Shown here: positions 6,560-23,145 of the stretch, piece after piece
Position numbering within the stretch: position 1 is the stretch's first letter
Layout of the letters: each line of letters starts with the position of its first letter
Origin: an archaeon
Lineage (GTDB): Archaea > Asgardarchaeota > Thorarchaeia > Thorarchaeales > Thorarchaeaceae
NCBI GenBank assembly: GCA_024275415.1
Contig: JAJRZD010000125.1
Location: 9,914 to 41,913 of the forward strand
Length of the DNA: 32,000 bases
Reading direction: 5' to 3'
Made by a program: the position numbers and the translations under genes
The notes under the pieces: generated by a model
Database searches by the model: none
What the model saw: only the letters and a program-made list of their open reading frames with translations
Told to the model about the DNA's origin: nothing

Positions 6560-7204
6560 TCATCTTATCGCTTTCAGAGCTCTACTTGCAACGAACCAGC
6601 TTATGTTTCCGAGCATCTCGTGTGGGAGATAGAATATCGAATTTCTGTCAAAGAGCATACGGGCACTTGCTGGGAACTCCTCGTCAGCCTCTTCAAAGAT
6701 TATGAGCACTTTTACCATGGGGAGAAAGGACAGCTCAAACCCTACATCTCCGTAGTCTACTCTCTTCGCACCTAACCGCTCGAATGCTGTATAGAGCTTC
6801 TCCCTATTCTCAATAAAAGCAGCAAGGAGTGCTTTGATGTCTTCTTCGTCAAATGAATACCTGCAAGCCCACGACCCTCTCAATGTGTTGAACTTCACCC
6901 ATTCGTTCCCGATGCCCTTGTCCTTTGCCTTGCTGTAATAGAAGAGATATGGAATCAACCGGCTGGGTGATGTTTCTGTATTTGTAAACGTATCGACAGT
7001 CCTTCCTGTTTCAAAATATAATCGGATACCAAGAATGTCCACATATTCGCTTCCCAGTCCAAAATGGTTCCTGATGGACTGGATGTCATCCTTGAAATTC
7101 TCCCAGCTCCACATTGCTGAACTCGTATCGAACTGCTCGATGTCGTGCTTATGCGCTATCTCTCGCGCGACACCCATCCAATACTCTAGAATATCGTCCG
7201 GCAT
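6560..7204 (-). CDS. DUF3786-like protein
   Basis: C-terminal FLPMVKVLIIFEEADEEFPASARMLFD..SIFYLPHE matches the DUF3786 signature as recalled. Confidence 0.75.
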   Translation of the reverse strand: MPDDILEYWMGVAREIAHKHDIEQFDTSSAMWSWENFKDDIQSIRNHFGLGSEYVDILGIRLYFETGRTVDTFTNTETSPSRLIPYLFYYSKAKDKGIGNEWVKFNTLRGSWACRYSFDEEDIKALLAAFIENREKLYTAFERLGAKRVDYGDVGFELSFLPMVKVLIIFEEADEEFPASARMLFDRNSIFYLPHEMLGNISWFVASRALKAIR

Positions 7205-7259
7205 AGAAAATCACCTACTCTGATACATCCGTTCCTATCAGTTTTTACAAACGCCATGC

Positions 7260-8060
7260 CTATTCCTTCTTGGCTTTCTCAGGTGCCGACCTGCAATCCT
7301 CAATTCCTGCAGCCTCGCATACAGCATAGCGTGCCTGATACCCTGCAACATGGAGGAGCGCATCACCGACTTCTCTATCCTTAGCCATTGACGCCGTGCA
7401 CGGGTATGCGTGATGGGCTTTAGAGATCACATCGAATAGGTCATCTGTATCTGCTATCGACCGTCCTCTGACCTTCTGGCTGACATACCATGTACATCCG
7501 CAAGGAGCAGAACGTTTTGGCCCGATCTCGGCAATGATGTCGCCTTTCATGTCCACATAATGGATTGGTCGCCCTAGTCTGTACTGCTCGATGAACTCGT
7601 CAATCAAAGCACCTTCTCCTGGTTCGAGAGTACAGAATGGCTTTGGAAACGCGGATTCAATACCTATCTCATCAAGGGTTTCCTTGACTTGCGCGCGCAA
7701 ACCTGGGGGTATCCATGTTGGATCCTCGATTGGCGCCAAGACGGCTCTCGCACCTGTTATCTTGATCATGTGATCGACCGAAGCAATGATGTCGTGGTGG
7801 ATTGCGACAATCAATAGGAGGTCGCACTTTTCTAGCCCGATTTCGTTGATGTATTGCTCAGGGTCTTCGATAATGGTGGGTGAGGGGGGGTCAATGGGAT
7901 AGATTCCCACAATATCGCCCACATAAGATCCATAGGTAGATCTGCATTCTGAGCAGCTAGGCTCACATGCCTGACAGAATGTCCGGAAGTTGATTAGGTT
8001 CCCTATAACTCGCTCAGCGAAGACATCGCCGTAAATGGTCGCTATTCGCATAGTCGCCAC
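7260..8060 (-). CDS. DUF166-like Cys-rich protein
   Basis: FPKPFCTL, SAPCGCT, HHAYPCTASM and GDALLHVAGY motifs, plus N-terminal CxxCxxxCxxC. Start is GTG 8060 or ATG 8051. Confidence 0.75.
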   Translation of the reverse strand: MATMRIATIYGDVFAERVIGNLINFRTFCQACEPSCSECRSTYGSYVGDIVGIYPIDPPSPTIIEDPEQYINEIGLEKCDLLLIVAIHHDIIASVDHMIKITGARAVLAPIEDPTWIPPGLRAQVKETLDEIGIESAFPKPFCTLEPGEGALIDEFIEQYRLGRPIHYVDMKGDIIAEIGPKRSAPCGCTWYVSQKVRGRSIADTDDLFDVISKAHHAYPCTASMAKDREVGDALLHVAGYQARYAVCEAAGIEDCRSAPEKAKKE

Positions 8061-8213
8061 CTAGAAGTGTAAAACGTATCTTAGCATGTTACATAAGGAT
8101 GTTGTTTGCGGCTCTTTCCATCTCCCTAACGGAAATATAATAACTTACAGATGCGCTGACGAATCTGGTGATGCAACATGGTTCTAGGTGACCTGCTCTT
8201 CCCGAATATCGAA

Positions 8214-20761: not shown

Positions 20762-22177
20762 ATGGCAAAGCTCGCAGGACCTTTGGAGATATACCCTCTT
20801 CTTCCTGGAACGAACTGCAAGGTATGTGGTGAAGCCAACTGCATGGCATTCGCTACGAAAATGGCTGAATACACGGTCAAGCTGAGGGATTGCACTCCTC
20901 TGTATGAGGAAGAACAATATGCTAAGAAACGTGTGAAGCTTGAGGAACTTATCCGTCCTCCGGTACGTGAAGTGACCTTCGGAACGGGTGAGAAAGCTGT
21001 GTCCATCGGGGGAAAGCTGGTTCTCTATCGACATGACCTGAGATACACAAACCCTACAGCATTCTTCATAGACATCTCTGACGCACTGGATGCAGACGCT
21101 TTTGCTAAGCGTGTGAGGGACATCGAGGAATGGACATACGTGTACATCGGACAGAACCTACGGCTTGATGGTATTGCTCTTCGGGGAGTATCGAAAGACC
21201 CACAGACATTTGCAAAGGCAGCAAAGAAGTTAGTCGAATTGACGGACTGGCCCATAATGCTGTGTTCGTTGGATCCCAAGATGCTCTCAGCAGCAGCCAA
21301 TGCAATCGCTGATAAGAAACCTCTGCTATATGCCGCCACACTCGACACATGGTCTGAGGTTGGTGAGATTGCTGCGAAGCATGGGTTACCTCTCGTGGCA
21401 TACGTGCCAGGCAATCTGAATGACCTGGCTTCTCTCGCCAATACGCTACAGGCAATGGGCATCCATGACATTGTCCTTGACCCGGGCACACTATCGCGTT
21501 CAGGTCTTGGGACTACAATCGATTGTTTCACGCAGCTTCGAAGGGCTGCAACGGTGAAGGACAATGATGTTATTGGCTATCCCCTTCTGTCTACTCCAAT
21601 CTCTGTCTGGGCAGACTATAGAGAAGGTGAAGCTCCAGAGCTCACCAAGTGGGATGAGGTGCTTACGGCCGCATCAATGATAGTCCGCTATTCGGACATT
21701 GTGGTTCTCCACAGTCTGGACATGTGGACCAATCTCCCACTGACTTTCCTTCGAAGCAATCTCTACACAGATCCGGTGAAGCCAGTAGCCGTAGAACCTG
21801 GTCTGGTAAAATTCGGTGATGCAACATCTGATTCTCCTGTCATGTATACCACTAATTTTGCACTTACATATTTCACAGTGGAGAGTGATATCAAGCAGGG
21901 GAATGTTGACACATGGCTACTGGTCGTAGACACAGAAGGAATGAGTGTCCAGTCTGCTGTTGCTGGAAGAAAGCTGACTGCTGACAAGGTAGCTGAGGCA
22001 ATCCAAGAATATGATGTCGAGGAAAAAGTCAACCATCGTATTCTCATCAGCCCTGGTATGGCTGCCAGAATAAGTGGTGAAACCGAGGAATCCAGTGGCT
22101 GGACAGTCAAAGTTGGTCCTCGTGATTCCAGCGGCATTCCAAAATACCTTCAAGAAAAGAAGTGGCAGGAGGAGTAG
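20762..22177 (+). CDS. cdhE: ACDS complex gamma subunit (corrinoid Fe-S protein large subunit)
   Basis: LPGTNCKVCGEANCMAFA, IYTDP-like LYTDPVKPVAVEPG, TTNFALTYFTVESD, and GPRDSSGIP. Confidence 0.97.
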   Translation: MAKLAGPLEIYPLLPGTNCKVCGEANCMAFATKMAEYTVKLRDCTPLYEEEQYAKKRVKLEELIRPPVREVTFGTGEKAVSIGGKLVLYRHDLRYTNPTAFFIDISDALDADAFAKRVRDIEEWTYVYIGQNLRLDGIALRGVSKDPQTFAKAAKKLVELTDWPIMLCSLDPKMLSAAANAIADKKPLLYAATLDTWSEVGEIAAKHGLPLVAYVPGNLNDLASLANTLQAMGIHDIVLDPGTLSRSGLGTTIDCFTQLRRAATVKDNDVIGYPLLSTPISVWADYREGEAPELTKWDEVLTAASMIVRYSDIVVLHSLDMWTNLPLTFLRSNLYTDPVKPVAVEPGLVKFGDATSDSPVMYTTNFALTYFTVESDIKQGNVDTWLLVVDTEGMSVQSAVAGRKLTADKVAEAIQEYDVEEKVNHRILISPGMAARISGETEESSGWTVKVGPRDSSGIPKYLQEKKWQEE

Positions 22178-22222
22178 TCCTCCTAGAAAGTGGGGTTCTC
22201 TCGAACCCCCTCTCTTTGTTTT
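22167..22222 (+). terminator. Two tandem hairpins plus T-tract at the end of cdhE
   Basis: AGGAGGA-GTAG-TCCTCCT (22167-22184, stop codon in the loop) and GGGGTTC-TCTC-GAACCCC (22192-22209), followed by TCTTTGTTTTT. Confidence 0.6.
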
Positions 22223-22329
22223 TCGGATACGAATACCCACAGATCCACAATCTATCGACATATCGATGAGTCTAAATGTCCTCATTCCAGTCTTGAAAGA
22301 TACCGAATCTCCACTACAGACGCGAACAA

Positions 22330-23145
22330 GTGATGTACATGCGTGAAAGATTAGTTATCTCAGTATCCGGAAAGGGTGGTGTCGGGAAGACAACCATTTC
22401 AGCACTATTGTCGAGAGTTCTATCTGAGAAGACGAGAAGGTCTCTCCTTCTTGTGGATGCAGATCCTGTCATTAACCTTCCTCGTGCCCTAGGCGTTGAT
22501 GTCCCTGCATCTGTTGGAAACATTGCGACAGAGATGCGCAAGAGTATAGATGACGGCACCCTTCCCGCTTCTGCCGCAAAACAGGATATCCTTGAGGGAC
22601 GCATATTCGAATCCCTTGTGGAAGGGGAGCGGTTTGATTTCTTGGCGATGGGGCGAACCGAGGGTGAAGGTTGCTACTGCTATGTGAACCGGTTGCTCAC
22701 ACAAATCCTAGACCGTTTATCATTAAATTATGAGATAACATTAATGGACATGAGTGCAGGTCTGGAGCACTTCAGTCGAAGAACAAACCGCAACGTAGAT
22801 GTTTTGATCATCGTGATTGACTCATCCCGTGCAGCCTTTGAGGCTGCGCTCCGTATTCGTGATTTGGCAAAGGAGGTTCACATCGATTTCAAGAAGATAC
22901 TAATTATCGGAAATCGCATTCCTGATAATCTGATTCCTGCCGTGTCTACGGGCCTCGAAGACAACGGGTTGGATTTGGCCGGAATCGTTCCTACAGACAA
23001 TGCGATTGCAGAGCTGAACTATCTCGGAAAACCAGTCTTTGACTTATCTGCGAGTTCGCCTGCCCTTCATGCCGTGGAAGGAATAGCCGAGGATCTTGGA
23101 CTTTTAAGCGAGGTCACCTTGCTCAAACTCCTTGGGCAAGCCTAG
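22330..23145 (+). CDS. cooC: Second CooC/AcsF-type nickel-insertion ATPase
   Basis: GKGGVGKT, DADP, MGRTEGEGCYCYVN, and DMSAGLEHFSRRT. Start is 22330, 22333 or 22339. Confidence 0.9.
   Translation: MMYMRERLVISVSGKGGVGKTTISALLSRVLSEKTRRSLLLVDADPVINLPRALGVDVPASVGNIATEMRKSIDDGTLPASAAKQDILEGRIFESLVEGERFDFLAMGRTEGEGCYCYVNRLLTQILDRLSLNYEITLMDMSAGLEHFSRRTNRNVDVLIIVIDSSRAAFEAALRIRDLAKEVHIDFKKILIIGNRIPDNLIPAVSTGLEDNGLDLAGIVPTDNAIAELNYLGKPVFDLSASSPALHAVEGIAEDLGLLSEVTLLKLLGQA

Follow-up and report, generated by a model that had tools for sequence, protein, structure and literature searches.

A Fwd-Hdr-like gene module with a lost tungsten/molybdenum site is conserved beside the acetyl-CoA decarbonylase/synthase genes of Thorarchaeia

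In a 32,000-nucleotide stretch of the genome of an archaeon of the family Thorarchaeaceae (hereafter, the window; assembly GCA_024275415.1, contig JAJRZD010000125.1, positions 9,914 to 41,913), the genes for acetyl-CoA decarbonylase/synthase (ACDS), the archaeal CO dehydrogenase/acetyl-CoA synthase (CODH/ACS), adjoin a group of genes related to those for formylmethanofuran dehydrogenase (Fwd) and heterodisulfide reductase (Hdr). These genes, referred to below as the module, encode an HdrA-MvhD fusion protein, a FwdF-like polyferredoxin (FwdF*), a FwdG-type ferredoxin with an additional iron-sulfur domain (FeS-FwdG), and homologs of FwdB and FwdD (FwdB* and FwdD*). FwdB* has lost the ligand and catalytic residues of the tungsten/molybdenum (W/Mo) site, and in Thorarchaeia the module occurs, and is missing, together with ACDS. 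We favor the reading in which the module is functionally coupled to ACDS by exchanging low-potential electrons with it, and give this reading about an even chance of being correct. Hdr-Fmd supercomplexes and a Fwd-Hdr gene cluster are already known, and what is new is that a cofactor-less version is conservedly linked to the genes for acetyl-CoA synthase; a literature search, outside of which most subscription journals remained, found no account of the Cys-less version or of its tie to ACDS in Thorarchaeia. A preliminary description of the locus, made from the window sequence, had proposed that a catalytically dead Fwd scaffold wires HdrA-MvhD to ACDS; its observations were confirmed, and its interpretation is supported in part.

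FwdB* aligns over its full length with the solved FwdB chains 5t5i, 8rja and 9sfi (E-values from 8e-38, for 5t5i, to 3e-34) and covers positions 2-417 of the 421 positions of the TIGR03129 profile, with a score of 249.4 bits that lies below the model cut-off, compared with 552 bits for the canonical FwdB paralog from the same genome. The four-cysteine motif of the [4Fe-4S] cluster (CxxCxxxC...C) is retained, Cys9, Cys12, Cys16 and Cys34 being invariant in the alignment. The segment that contains the W/Mo ligand site, SVCHGP in FwdB (Cys118-His119 of Methanothermobacter wolfeii FwdB), reads SLGTSQ in FwdB*, with Gly-Thr in place of Cys-His, and the segment with the catalytic Arg, PMRGHYN, reads PMFTEPN, with Phe in place of Arg; the canonical paralog has both Cys-His and Arg. 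The loss of the terminal W site, proposed in the preliminary description, holds for the whole Thorarchaeia clade, in which the Gly at the ligand position is nearly invariant and no member has Cys-His or Arg. The replacement residues differ among genera, with Gly followed by Thr, Ala or Leu at the ligand pair and Phe, Trp, Ala or Tyr at the Arg site (in relatives, the latter position is occupied by Phe, Trp, Ala, Tyr, Thr or Val), and this variation speaks against the emergence of another catalytic site. With the ligand Cys, the His and the Arg replaced throughout the clade, FwdB*/D* is, judging by these residues, neither a canonical W/Mo CO2 reductase nor a canonical formate dehydrogenase.

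The case for degeneration of FwdD* is weak. This protein matches FwdD chains in the PDB with E-values from 2e-13 to 6e-10, and its N-terminal Arg is replaced by His in most copies from Thorarchaeia and retained in locus L070 and in Hermodarchaeia (alignment). Of the losses of pterin/metal-site residues originally reported for both proteins, the one at the metal site of FwdB* stands and the one in FwdD* is doubtful. Among nine closely related loci, the rough ratios of nonsynonymous to synonymous substitution rates (dN/dS), usable only for ranking the genes because dS is saturated (1.2-2.3), are 0.09 for FwdB* and 0.10 for FwdD*, against 0.03-0.06 for FeS-FwdG, FwdF*, HdrA, CooC, CdhA, DUF166 and DUF3786. 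By this ranking, both FwdB* and FwdD* are shown to evolve under purifying selection that appears looser than that on their partners.

The genome (an assembly of 3.5 Mb, 92.9% complete) encodes the catalytic enzyme elsewhere: a canonical fwdD-fwdB-fwdA operon is located on contig C113 (FwdA, 652 bits) and fwdC on contig C118, so that FwdB* and FwdD* are extra copies. Contig C97 carries an hdrC-hdrB-hdrA cluster next to the genes for the small and large subunits of a [NiFe] hydrogenase, and about twenty CCG-domain proteins and many HdrA paralogs are encoded in the genome as a whole. Profile scans found no fwdA/C, hdrB/C or mvhA/G in the window, as the preliminary description had stated, nor on the rest of its contig, and likewise no FdhAB or Elp as a donor module. 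CdhA through CdhE, FwdF and FeS-FwdG are each encoded by a single copy in the genome, inside the window (genome search, with tblastn for FwdF).

Gene order was compared across 42 loci, 40 of which came from a scan of one genome per species (nearly all Thorarchaeota) and two from metagenome contigs (L070 and L071). The arrangement DUF3786/DUF166/FwdD*/FwdF*/HdrA-MvhD facing FeS-FwdG/FwdB*/CooC/CdhABCDE/CooC2 is kept, in order and orientation, up to the contig ends, with locus L068 as the sole exception. In L068 (positions 7669-11056), which lies on the closed Thorarchaeota chromosome G368, no cdh genes adjoin the module, and CdhC was not found in this closed genome. This decaying module is also the only broken copy among the fetched loci: the HdrA open reading frame (ORF) is only 541 aa long, FwdF is encoded about 140 kb away, and FwdB* is homologous over its first ~183 residues alone, inside a chimeric ORF of 351 aa, with FeS-FwdG remaining intact. 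The conservation of the cdh linkage in relatives, left open in the preliminary description, thus extends over these Thorarchaeota-type loci and further, to Hermodarchaeia and two other Asgard families (see below). In L070 (1-1516) and L071 (1-681), the gene for a canonical FwdA, 58-60% identical to that of the window's own genome, terminates some 2 kb from DUF3786, which makes the catalytic fwd operon a near neighbor of the module in some relatives; in the genome studied here, it lies on a separate contig.

To survey the distribution within the family, FwdB*, CdhC, FeS-FwdG and FwdF* were searched for in 86 genomes from 16 genera. All four are present in the same five of the 16 genera (g1, g3, g6, g11 and g12) and none of the four in the other eleven, in eight of which canonical FwdB persists. 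Within genus g11, six genomes, including ones that are 97% and 99% complete, lack all four genes, and each genome-level mismatch among the four involves a metagenome-assembled genome that is 60-83% complete. This pattern of presence and absence shows that the module is inherited and lost together with ACDS, and that it tracks ACDS rather than formylmethanofuran dehydrogenase. Given the joint gain and loss, low-potential electrons probably move between the module and the acetyl-CoA enzyme, in one direction or the other, and the genomic support for such an exchange is good.

HdrA-MvhD spans positions 5-777 of the 777 positions of the NCBIfam HdrA2 model, with a score below the cut-off of 1100, and contains the FlpD (MvhD) domain at residues 648-770; cofactor binding by this protein is predicted from these matches. 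FwdF* contains 33 cysteines in eight four-Cys motifs and covers positions 7-331 of the 336 of the NCBIfam FwdF model, so that in this protein, as in FwdB*, the iron-sulfur motifs are retained as originally noted. FeS-FwdG is the best conserved protein of the module, with 78-90% identity across the loci from Thorarchaeia. Its N-terminus is a cluster domain of the type found in CdhE, the corrinoid iron-sulfur protein (CFeSP) and RnfB, which matches the CFeSP large subunit (E 3e-7) and is 46% identical to the N-terminus of the CdhE encoded in the same window; its C-terminal half, with two [4Fe-4S] clusters, aligns with the FwdG chains in 9sfi (E 6e-8) and 5t5i (E 1e-6), including the FwdG-specific insert, and the second FwdG motif is atypical (C-x9-C-x2-C-x3-C). 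On the ACDS side, all five subunits, CdhABCDE, are encoded in the window, as identified by Pfam matches. CooC is a genuine member of its family, matching 3kje over residues 1-260 and containing the P-loop GKGGVGKT and the CxC motif C119-M-C121; the second ATPase, CooC2, is kept 3' of cdhE in the loci from Thorarchaeia. The fwdG stop at 12984 directly abuts the fwdB* start at 12985, and a GTGA overlap joins the fwdB* stop to the cooC start, both exactly as first described. A co-fold of CdhA with FeS-FwdG from alignments scored 0.01, against a mark of 0.32, and carries no weight for or against a contact.

The closest known systems are the Hdr-Fmd/Fwd supercomplexes of methanogens (Fdh-Hdr-Fmd of Methanospirillum hungatei, PDB 7bkb; Mvh-Hdr-Fmd of Methanothermobacter, PMC13580544), which share with the window homologs of HdrA and MvhD, FwdG, FwdB and FwdD, as well as an eight-cluster FmdF/FwdF encoded beside hdrA. 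In the methanogen complexes, FmdF links HdrA to Fmd and passes low-potential electrons from HdrA to FmdB, and an equivalent link would be expected in the module. Asgard FmdFs are related to the Methanomicrobiales type, and a 2026 structural paper derives the HdrA-binding FmdFs of Methanomicrobiales and Methanocellales from Asgard archaea or Bathyarchaeales, with FmdF groups 3-6 being uncharacterized (PMC13580544). Unlike the methanogen Hdr-Fmd, the window encodes HdrA and MvhD as a fusion, a FwdB* without the Cys, His and Arg, and a FwdG with an extra CdhE-type cluster domain, and the locus includes no HdrBC, hydrogenase, Fdh, FwdA or FwdC; furthermore, whereas the methanogen complexes have been isolated, the module, joined to cooC-cdhABCDE, is known from its genes alone. 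The fused HdrA-MvhD has the same architecture as HdrA2 of Methanosarcina acetivorans (HdrA2B2C2) but, unlike in that organism, no HdrB2C2 adjoins it, the neighbors are Fwd-like and ACDS genes, and the HdrA2 score remains under the model cut-off.

A similar gene set has been described in the cultured Methanonezhaarchaeum strain YNP3N, where a second FwdBD set occurs with HdrABC, FwdF and FwdG and was named Fwd-Hdr, with the proposal that formate oxidation is coupled to heterodisulfide reduction and to that of ferredoxin (Kohtz et al., Sci Adv 2025, PMC12700198). The two systems agree in having a second FwdBD together with FwdF, FwdG and Hdr, apart from the catalytic Fwd operon, and in the idea of an electronic connection between FwdBD and Hdr by way of FwdF and FwdG. 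They differ in that the YNP3N cluster has HdrABC and a FwdBD for which formate oxidation is proposed, whereas the window lacks HdrBC and its module is tied to ACDS; with no metal ligand in FwdB* of Thorarchaeia, formate oxidation is implausible there.

Taken together, the locus combines the sole ACDS of the genome, with two CooC maturases, and a probable electron-transfer module derived from the Fwd-Hdr type. As in the Hdr-Fmd supercomplexes of methanogens, HdrA, FwdF*, FeS-FwdG and FwdB*D* may assemble into one iron-sulfur wire, with HdrA-MvhD as the putative site of flavin-based bifurcation or confurcation. FwdB*D*, with the fold and the [4Fe-4S] cluster of FwdB* kept, would serve only as a structural anchor and as the holder of the last cluster, and the low-potential end of the wire would serve the CO2/CO couple of CdhA, in either direction, in place of the Fwd active site. 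As a speculation, the hydrogenase and HdrBC encoded elsewhere in the genome could serve HdrA as mid-potential donor and high-potential acceptor, or the neighboring Cys-rich DUF166 protein could take such a part, acting as a thiol/disulfide site.

A phylum-wide search revealed a second tier of FwdB* homologs (230-290 bits) in one family, Hermodarchaeia, in which the ligand pair is replaced by Glu-Tyr and the Arg is missing. They are encoded within the same module, likewise next to cooC and cdh, apart from a few inserted genes. In two further Asgard families, a FwdB-like protein with Cys-His, and without the Arg, is encoded with FeS-FwdG, HdrA-MvhD, FwdF and FwdD next to cdhAB. In locus L077, FeS-FwdG, FwdB-like, HdrA-MvhD, FwdF, HdrC, HdrB, CooC, CdhA and CdhB form one co-directional run. 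An exhaustive search of 1.84 billion cluster representatives identified 666 relatives at E <= 0.001; we scored motifs and constructed a FastTree phylogeny for the 129 listed representatives of at least 380 aa, together with 17 proteins from the fetched loci, the window and its genome. In this tree, a clade of 64 Arg-less sequences (local support 99) is the sister group of a mainly canonical Cys-His-Arg FwdB clade; the dead clades of Thorarchaeia and Hermodarchaeia are sisters inside it (support 97), and it includes several further, separate losses of the Cys. The other half of the tree holds most of the remaining Cys-less sequences, which are presumably FhcB-like. By this phylogeny, the module is a derived branch of a wider Arg-less Fwd-Hdr family rather than a unique assembly of Thorarchaeia built around ACDS, and its partners are also found with HdrBC (L088 and L089) or with thioredoxin/FTR-like proteins (L087; FTR, ferredoxin:thioredoxin reductase). 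The special exit route for electrons through the CdhE-type domain of FwdG, suggested in the same description, gains no special support, as this domain is common to the whole Arg-less family. We considered the FeS-type N-terminal domain as an ACDS-specific adaptor and rejected this candidate role, the domain being present also in loci without nearby cdh.

Other members of the FwdB superfamily were noted along the way. On a short metagenome contig (L091, 3-3537), another Cys-less, Arg-less FwdB-like lineage (P0174, motif Y-S / D) is encoded directly 3' of CdhC, which is a second, separate link of a dead FwdB-like protein with CODH/ACS genes. In a small-genome Asgard family, the FwdB-like matches lie inside frames of 1018-1042 aa (G298:C4:36698-37963, G299:C104:6355-7614 and G300:C142:7241-8512), which points to a fusion of FwdB with a further subunit in that family. 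Finally, P0140, P0142, P0146, P0154, P0162, P0207, P0214 and P0244 are proteins of 570-640 aa, mostly with the canonical Cys-His-Arg, in which the FwdB match begins at about residue 145-170, implying an N-terminal extension.

Several observations weigh against a coupling of the module to ACDS. Three loci that contain relatives of the module have no cdh within 10 kb: L088 is an operon of FeS-FwdG/FwdB-like/HdrA-MvhD/FwdF/HdrC/HdrB, L089 has the same genes and a FwdA-like gene, and in the archaeal locus L087 (4883-11658), FwdF and HdrA-MvhD face FeS-FwdG, a Cys-Gln FwdB-like protein and FwdD, with a thioredoxin and a homolog of the FTR catalytic subunit inserted between hdrA and FeS-fwdG, a hint that HdrA has a disulfide partner in that lineage. 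Neighboring ACDS genes are therefore no requirement for the module to work, and the CdhE-type domain of FeS-FwdG, present in these loci, is a general feature of the family, not one specific to ACDS. The adjacency to cdh could have been inherited from an ancestral Wood-Ljungdahl neighborhood; in L082, catalytic FwdB, HdrA and cdh are encoded side by side. The surveyed genera are related, so that independent co-losses are few. The 141-nt gap between cooC and cdhA contains an oligo-T run and an AT-rich box, which makes a single transcript uncertain; the locus encodes neither a donor nor a high-potential acceptor for HdrA; and FwdB*, in which several motifs of the molybdopterin guanine dinucleotide (MGD) region survive in altered form (YWGxDP..HRH, VVDVR, FYGSG), may bind a pterin or nucleotide. 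The evidence base as a whole is genomic.

Under the strongest competing explanation, HdrA-MvhD/FwdF/FeS-FwdG/FwdB*D* form an independent Hdr-type, ferredoxin-linked oxidoreductase, for example, one that connects a thiol/disulfide couple (DUF166, a thioredoxin-like protein or an HdrBC-type protein) with ferredoxin; the module and cdh would then share a C1/low-potential regulon, with electrons carried by free ferredoxin. The HdrBC genes of L088 and L089 and the thioredoxin and FTR homologs of L087, all without cdh nearby, are compatible with such a complex, as is the view of Fwd-Hdr as a heterodisulfide-cycling complex in Kohtz et al. (PMC12700198), and the cooC-cdhA gap may contain a separate promoter. 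However, an independent complex leaves unexplained why FwdB*, FeS-FwdG and FwdF* are lost exactly where CdhC is absent while canonical Fwd, Hdr paralogs and ferredoxin-dependent enzymes remain, and why FwdB* is translationally coupled to the CODH maturase CooC. We consider this explanation possible but doubtful.

Within the favored reading of low-potential electron exchange with ACDS, a stable supercomplex is less likely than transient docking or exchange mediated by ferredoxin. The specific form in which HdrA-MvhD, FwdF*, FeS-FwdG and FwdB*D* dock on ACDS, making a bifurcating or confurcating CO2/CO-acetyl-CoA supercomplex in Thorarchaeia and Hermodarchaeia, seems rather unlikely.

Under another alternative, the module would be a reductive activator of the corrinoid protein, in which the low-potential end, through the CFeSP-type cluster domain of FeS-FwdG, re-reduces inactive Co(II) in CdhDE to Co(I), as an ATP-independent, bifurcation-driven counterpart of bacterial RACo. 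The cluster domain of bacterial CFeSP has a part in reductive activation; FeS-FwdG has, at its N-terminus, a homolog of this domain of CFeSP and CdhE, as described above; and in at least one AFDB cluster, the conserved neighbor DUF3786 occurs as a fusion with a 4Fe-4S domain. The same FeS-FwdG is, however, encoded in loci without cdh within 10 kb, and an eight-cluster wire with HdrA seems oversized for occasional repair; we consider this alternative improbable.

The least probable explanation, to which we give very little credence, is that FwdB*/D* is still an enzyme, with a pterin or other cofactor, non-canonical ligation and a reaction other than the reduction of CO2, or else that it is a scaffold of the Fhc type for the FwdA/FwdC of other loci. 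In methylotrophic bacteria, FhcB of the formyltransferase/hydrolase complex is a functional structural homolog of FwdB that is Cys-less and has lost the Mo/W active site; FwdB* resembles it as a dead FwdB homolog, and many Cys-less, Arg-less representatives of the family exist. The retention of the fold and of the altered MGD-region motifs, the purifying selection on FwdB* and FwdD*, and the canonical FwdA located about 2 kb from the cluster in L070 and L071 are also compatible with this explanation. Against an enzyme, the Cys, His and Arg are all replaced, and differently by genus, unlike what is expected of a new active site. Against an Fhc-like complex, the single fwdA of the genome has an operon to itself, together with genes for a complete, catalytic FwdB and for FwdD; the gene partners of FwdB* are Hdr, polyferredoxin and ACDS, with no FhcA/C/D-type partners adjoining and no amidohydrolase, FwdC or Ftr homolog detected in the window by profile scans; the distribution of FwdB* follows CdhC, not FwdA/FwdB; and FwdB* is placed in the Arg-less clade that neighbors canonical FwdB, not in the other half of the tree, where most other Cys-less, presumably FhcB-like sequences are found. 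The role of FwdB* as an Fhc-like scaffold for the FwdA of this genome, which the preliminary description had listed as a possible refutation, was therefore rejected on the genus distribution and the tree.

The locus was annotated from the ORF listing and from Pfam and NCBIfam profile scans of the window proteins (Table 1). It consists of two divergent gene sets, and its left end at 6560 corresponds to the DUF3786 gene, not to fwdD*; the gene content and coordinates given in the preliminary description, that is, hdrA-mvhD with an eight-cluster fwdF, FeS-fwdG, fwdB*, cooC, cdhABCDE and a second cooC, were confirmed by the ORFs and profiles. The fwdF ORF, as listed, shares sequence with the 3' end of hdrA, and fwdD* is convergent with fwdF, with a 44-nt overlap at the fwdF 3' end. 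The TATA-like box in the divergent intergenic region might act in a promoter. No RNA sequencing run containing window positions 12400-16400 was listed in a search for such data. A scan of the locus for sigma-70 promoters and intrinsic terminators yielded promoter matches at or below the shuffled expectation, a result that is uninformative here because the scan uses a bacterial consensus and the host is an archaeon.

Table 1. Features of the module and the ACDS locus, in window coordinates.
Feature	Position	Strand	Evidence
DUF3786 protein, 214 aa	6560..7204	-	Pfam PF12654, E 4e-26
DUF166 protein, 266 aa	7260..8060	-	Pfam PF02593, E 3e-48; weak match to the DfsP (seleno)protein model
FwdD* (FwdD-like), 135 aa	8178..8585	+	Molydop_binding PF01568, E 2.7e-10; NCBIfam FwdD, 60 bits (cut-off 175)
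FwdF* (FwdF-like polyferredoxin, eight [4Fe-4S] motifs)	8542..9969	-	NCBIfam FwdF, 225 bits (cut-off 375)
HdrA-MvhD fusion, HdrA2-like flavoprotein, 795 aa	9896..12283	-	NCBIfam HdrA2, 899.6 bits; FlpD, E 3.4e-45
Divergent intergenic region hdrA-mvhD / FeS-fwdG, 227 nt, with TATA-like GTATAAATA box	12284..12510	.	Sequence read
FeS-FwdG three-cluster ferredoxin, 157 aa	12511..12984	+	PF04060, E 3e-12, and Fer4
FwdB*, 433 aa	12985..14286	+	TIGR03129, 249 bits (cut-off 327.8)
CooC, Ni-insertion ATPase for CODH	14283..15089	+	PDB 3kje, E 2e-38
cdhA, cdhB, cdhC, cdhD, cdhE (ACDS, CODH/ACS)	15231..22177	+	Pfam Prismane and Fer4; CO_dh; CdhC and ACS_CODH_B_C; CdhD; FeS and CdhD
CooC2, second CooC-type ATPase	22330..23145	+	CbiA/AAA_31 matches; P-loop, CYC motif

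The two conserved neighbors at the left end of the locus are proteins with domains of the DUF type. DUF3786 is kept in most loci from Thorarchaeia. Its structure predicted with AlphaFold2 (AF2) has a pLDDT of 85 and no match in the PDB at E <= 0.001, the AFDB clusters return only other DUF3786 proteins, and a full-text literature search on DUF3786 yielded nothing relevant. In the DUF166 protein, which gave a poor structural model (pLDDT 57), Cys143, Cys187 and Cys221 are invariant in all aligned copies, and the copies from Thorarchaeia carry a CxxCxxxCxxC insert (residues 29-39; window positions 7344-7376). A DUF166 gene adjoins the module also in L079, where the protein is without the insert.

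Further out, a NAD(P) oxidoreductase of the GFO/IDH/MocA family (5290-6348, minus strand) adjoins DUF3786 and occupies the same position in L070 and L071, and so may belong to the conserved neighborhood. On the other side, a 164-aa protein (23343-23837, minus strand) with a Fuz_longin_1 match just under the Pfam cut-off (E 3e-5), a typical Asgard gene of the eukaryotic-signature type, is encoded between cooC2 and an acetyl-CoA hydrolase gene. The latter (24059-25948, plus strand), about 0.9 kb 3' of cooC2 and past the oppositely oriented longin-like gene, encodes a 629-aa protein in which acetyl-CoA hydrolase/transferase domains are joined to a GNAT acetyltransferase domain at the C-terminus; in L070, too, cooC2 is followed by a gene of the same domains and length.

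How very low-potential electrons are supplied to, or disposed of from, the Wood-Ljungdahl pathway in non-methanogenic Asgard archaea bears on whether the lifestyle of these organisms is acetogenic, syntrophic or organotrophic. A conserved module in which an Hdr-type bifurcating flavoprotein is linked to the genes for acetyl-CoA synthase offers a concrete, testable route, and the small protein set involved, five module proteins and CdhAB, is now defined. FwdB* would be a clear case of a redox-enzyme subunit that outlives its active site as a scaffold. If the docked ACDS supercomplex does exist, it would join the methanogen Hdr-Fmd complexes as a second type of carbon-fixing machine coupled to bifurcation, one that arose through the conversion of a CO2-reductase subunit to a pure scaffold.

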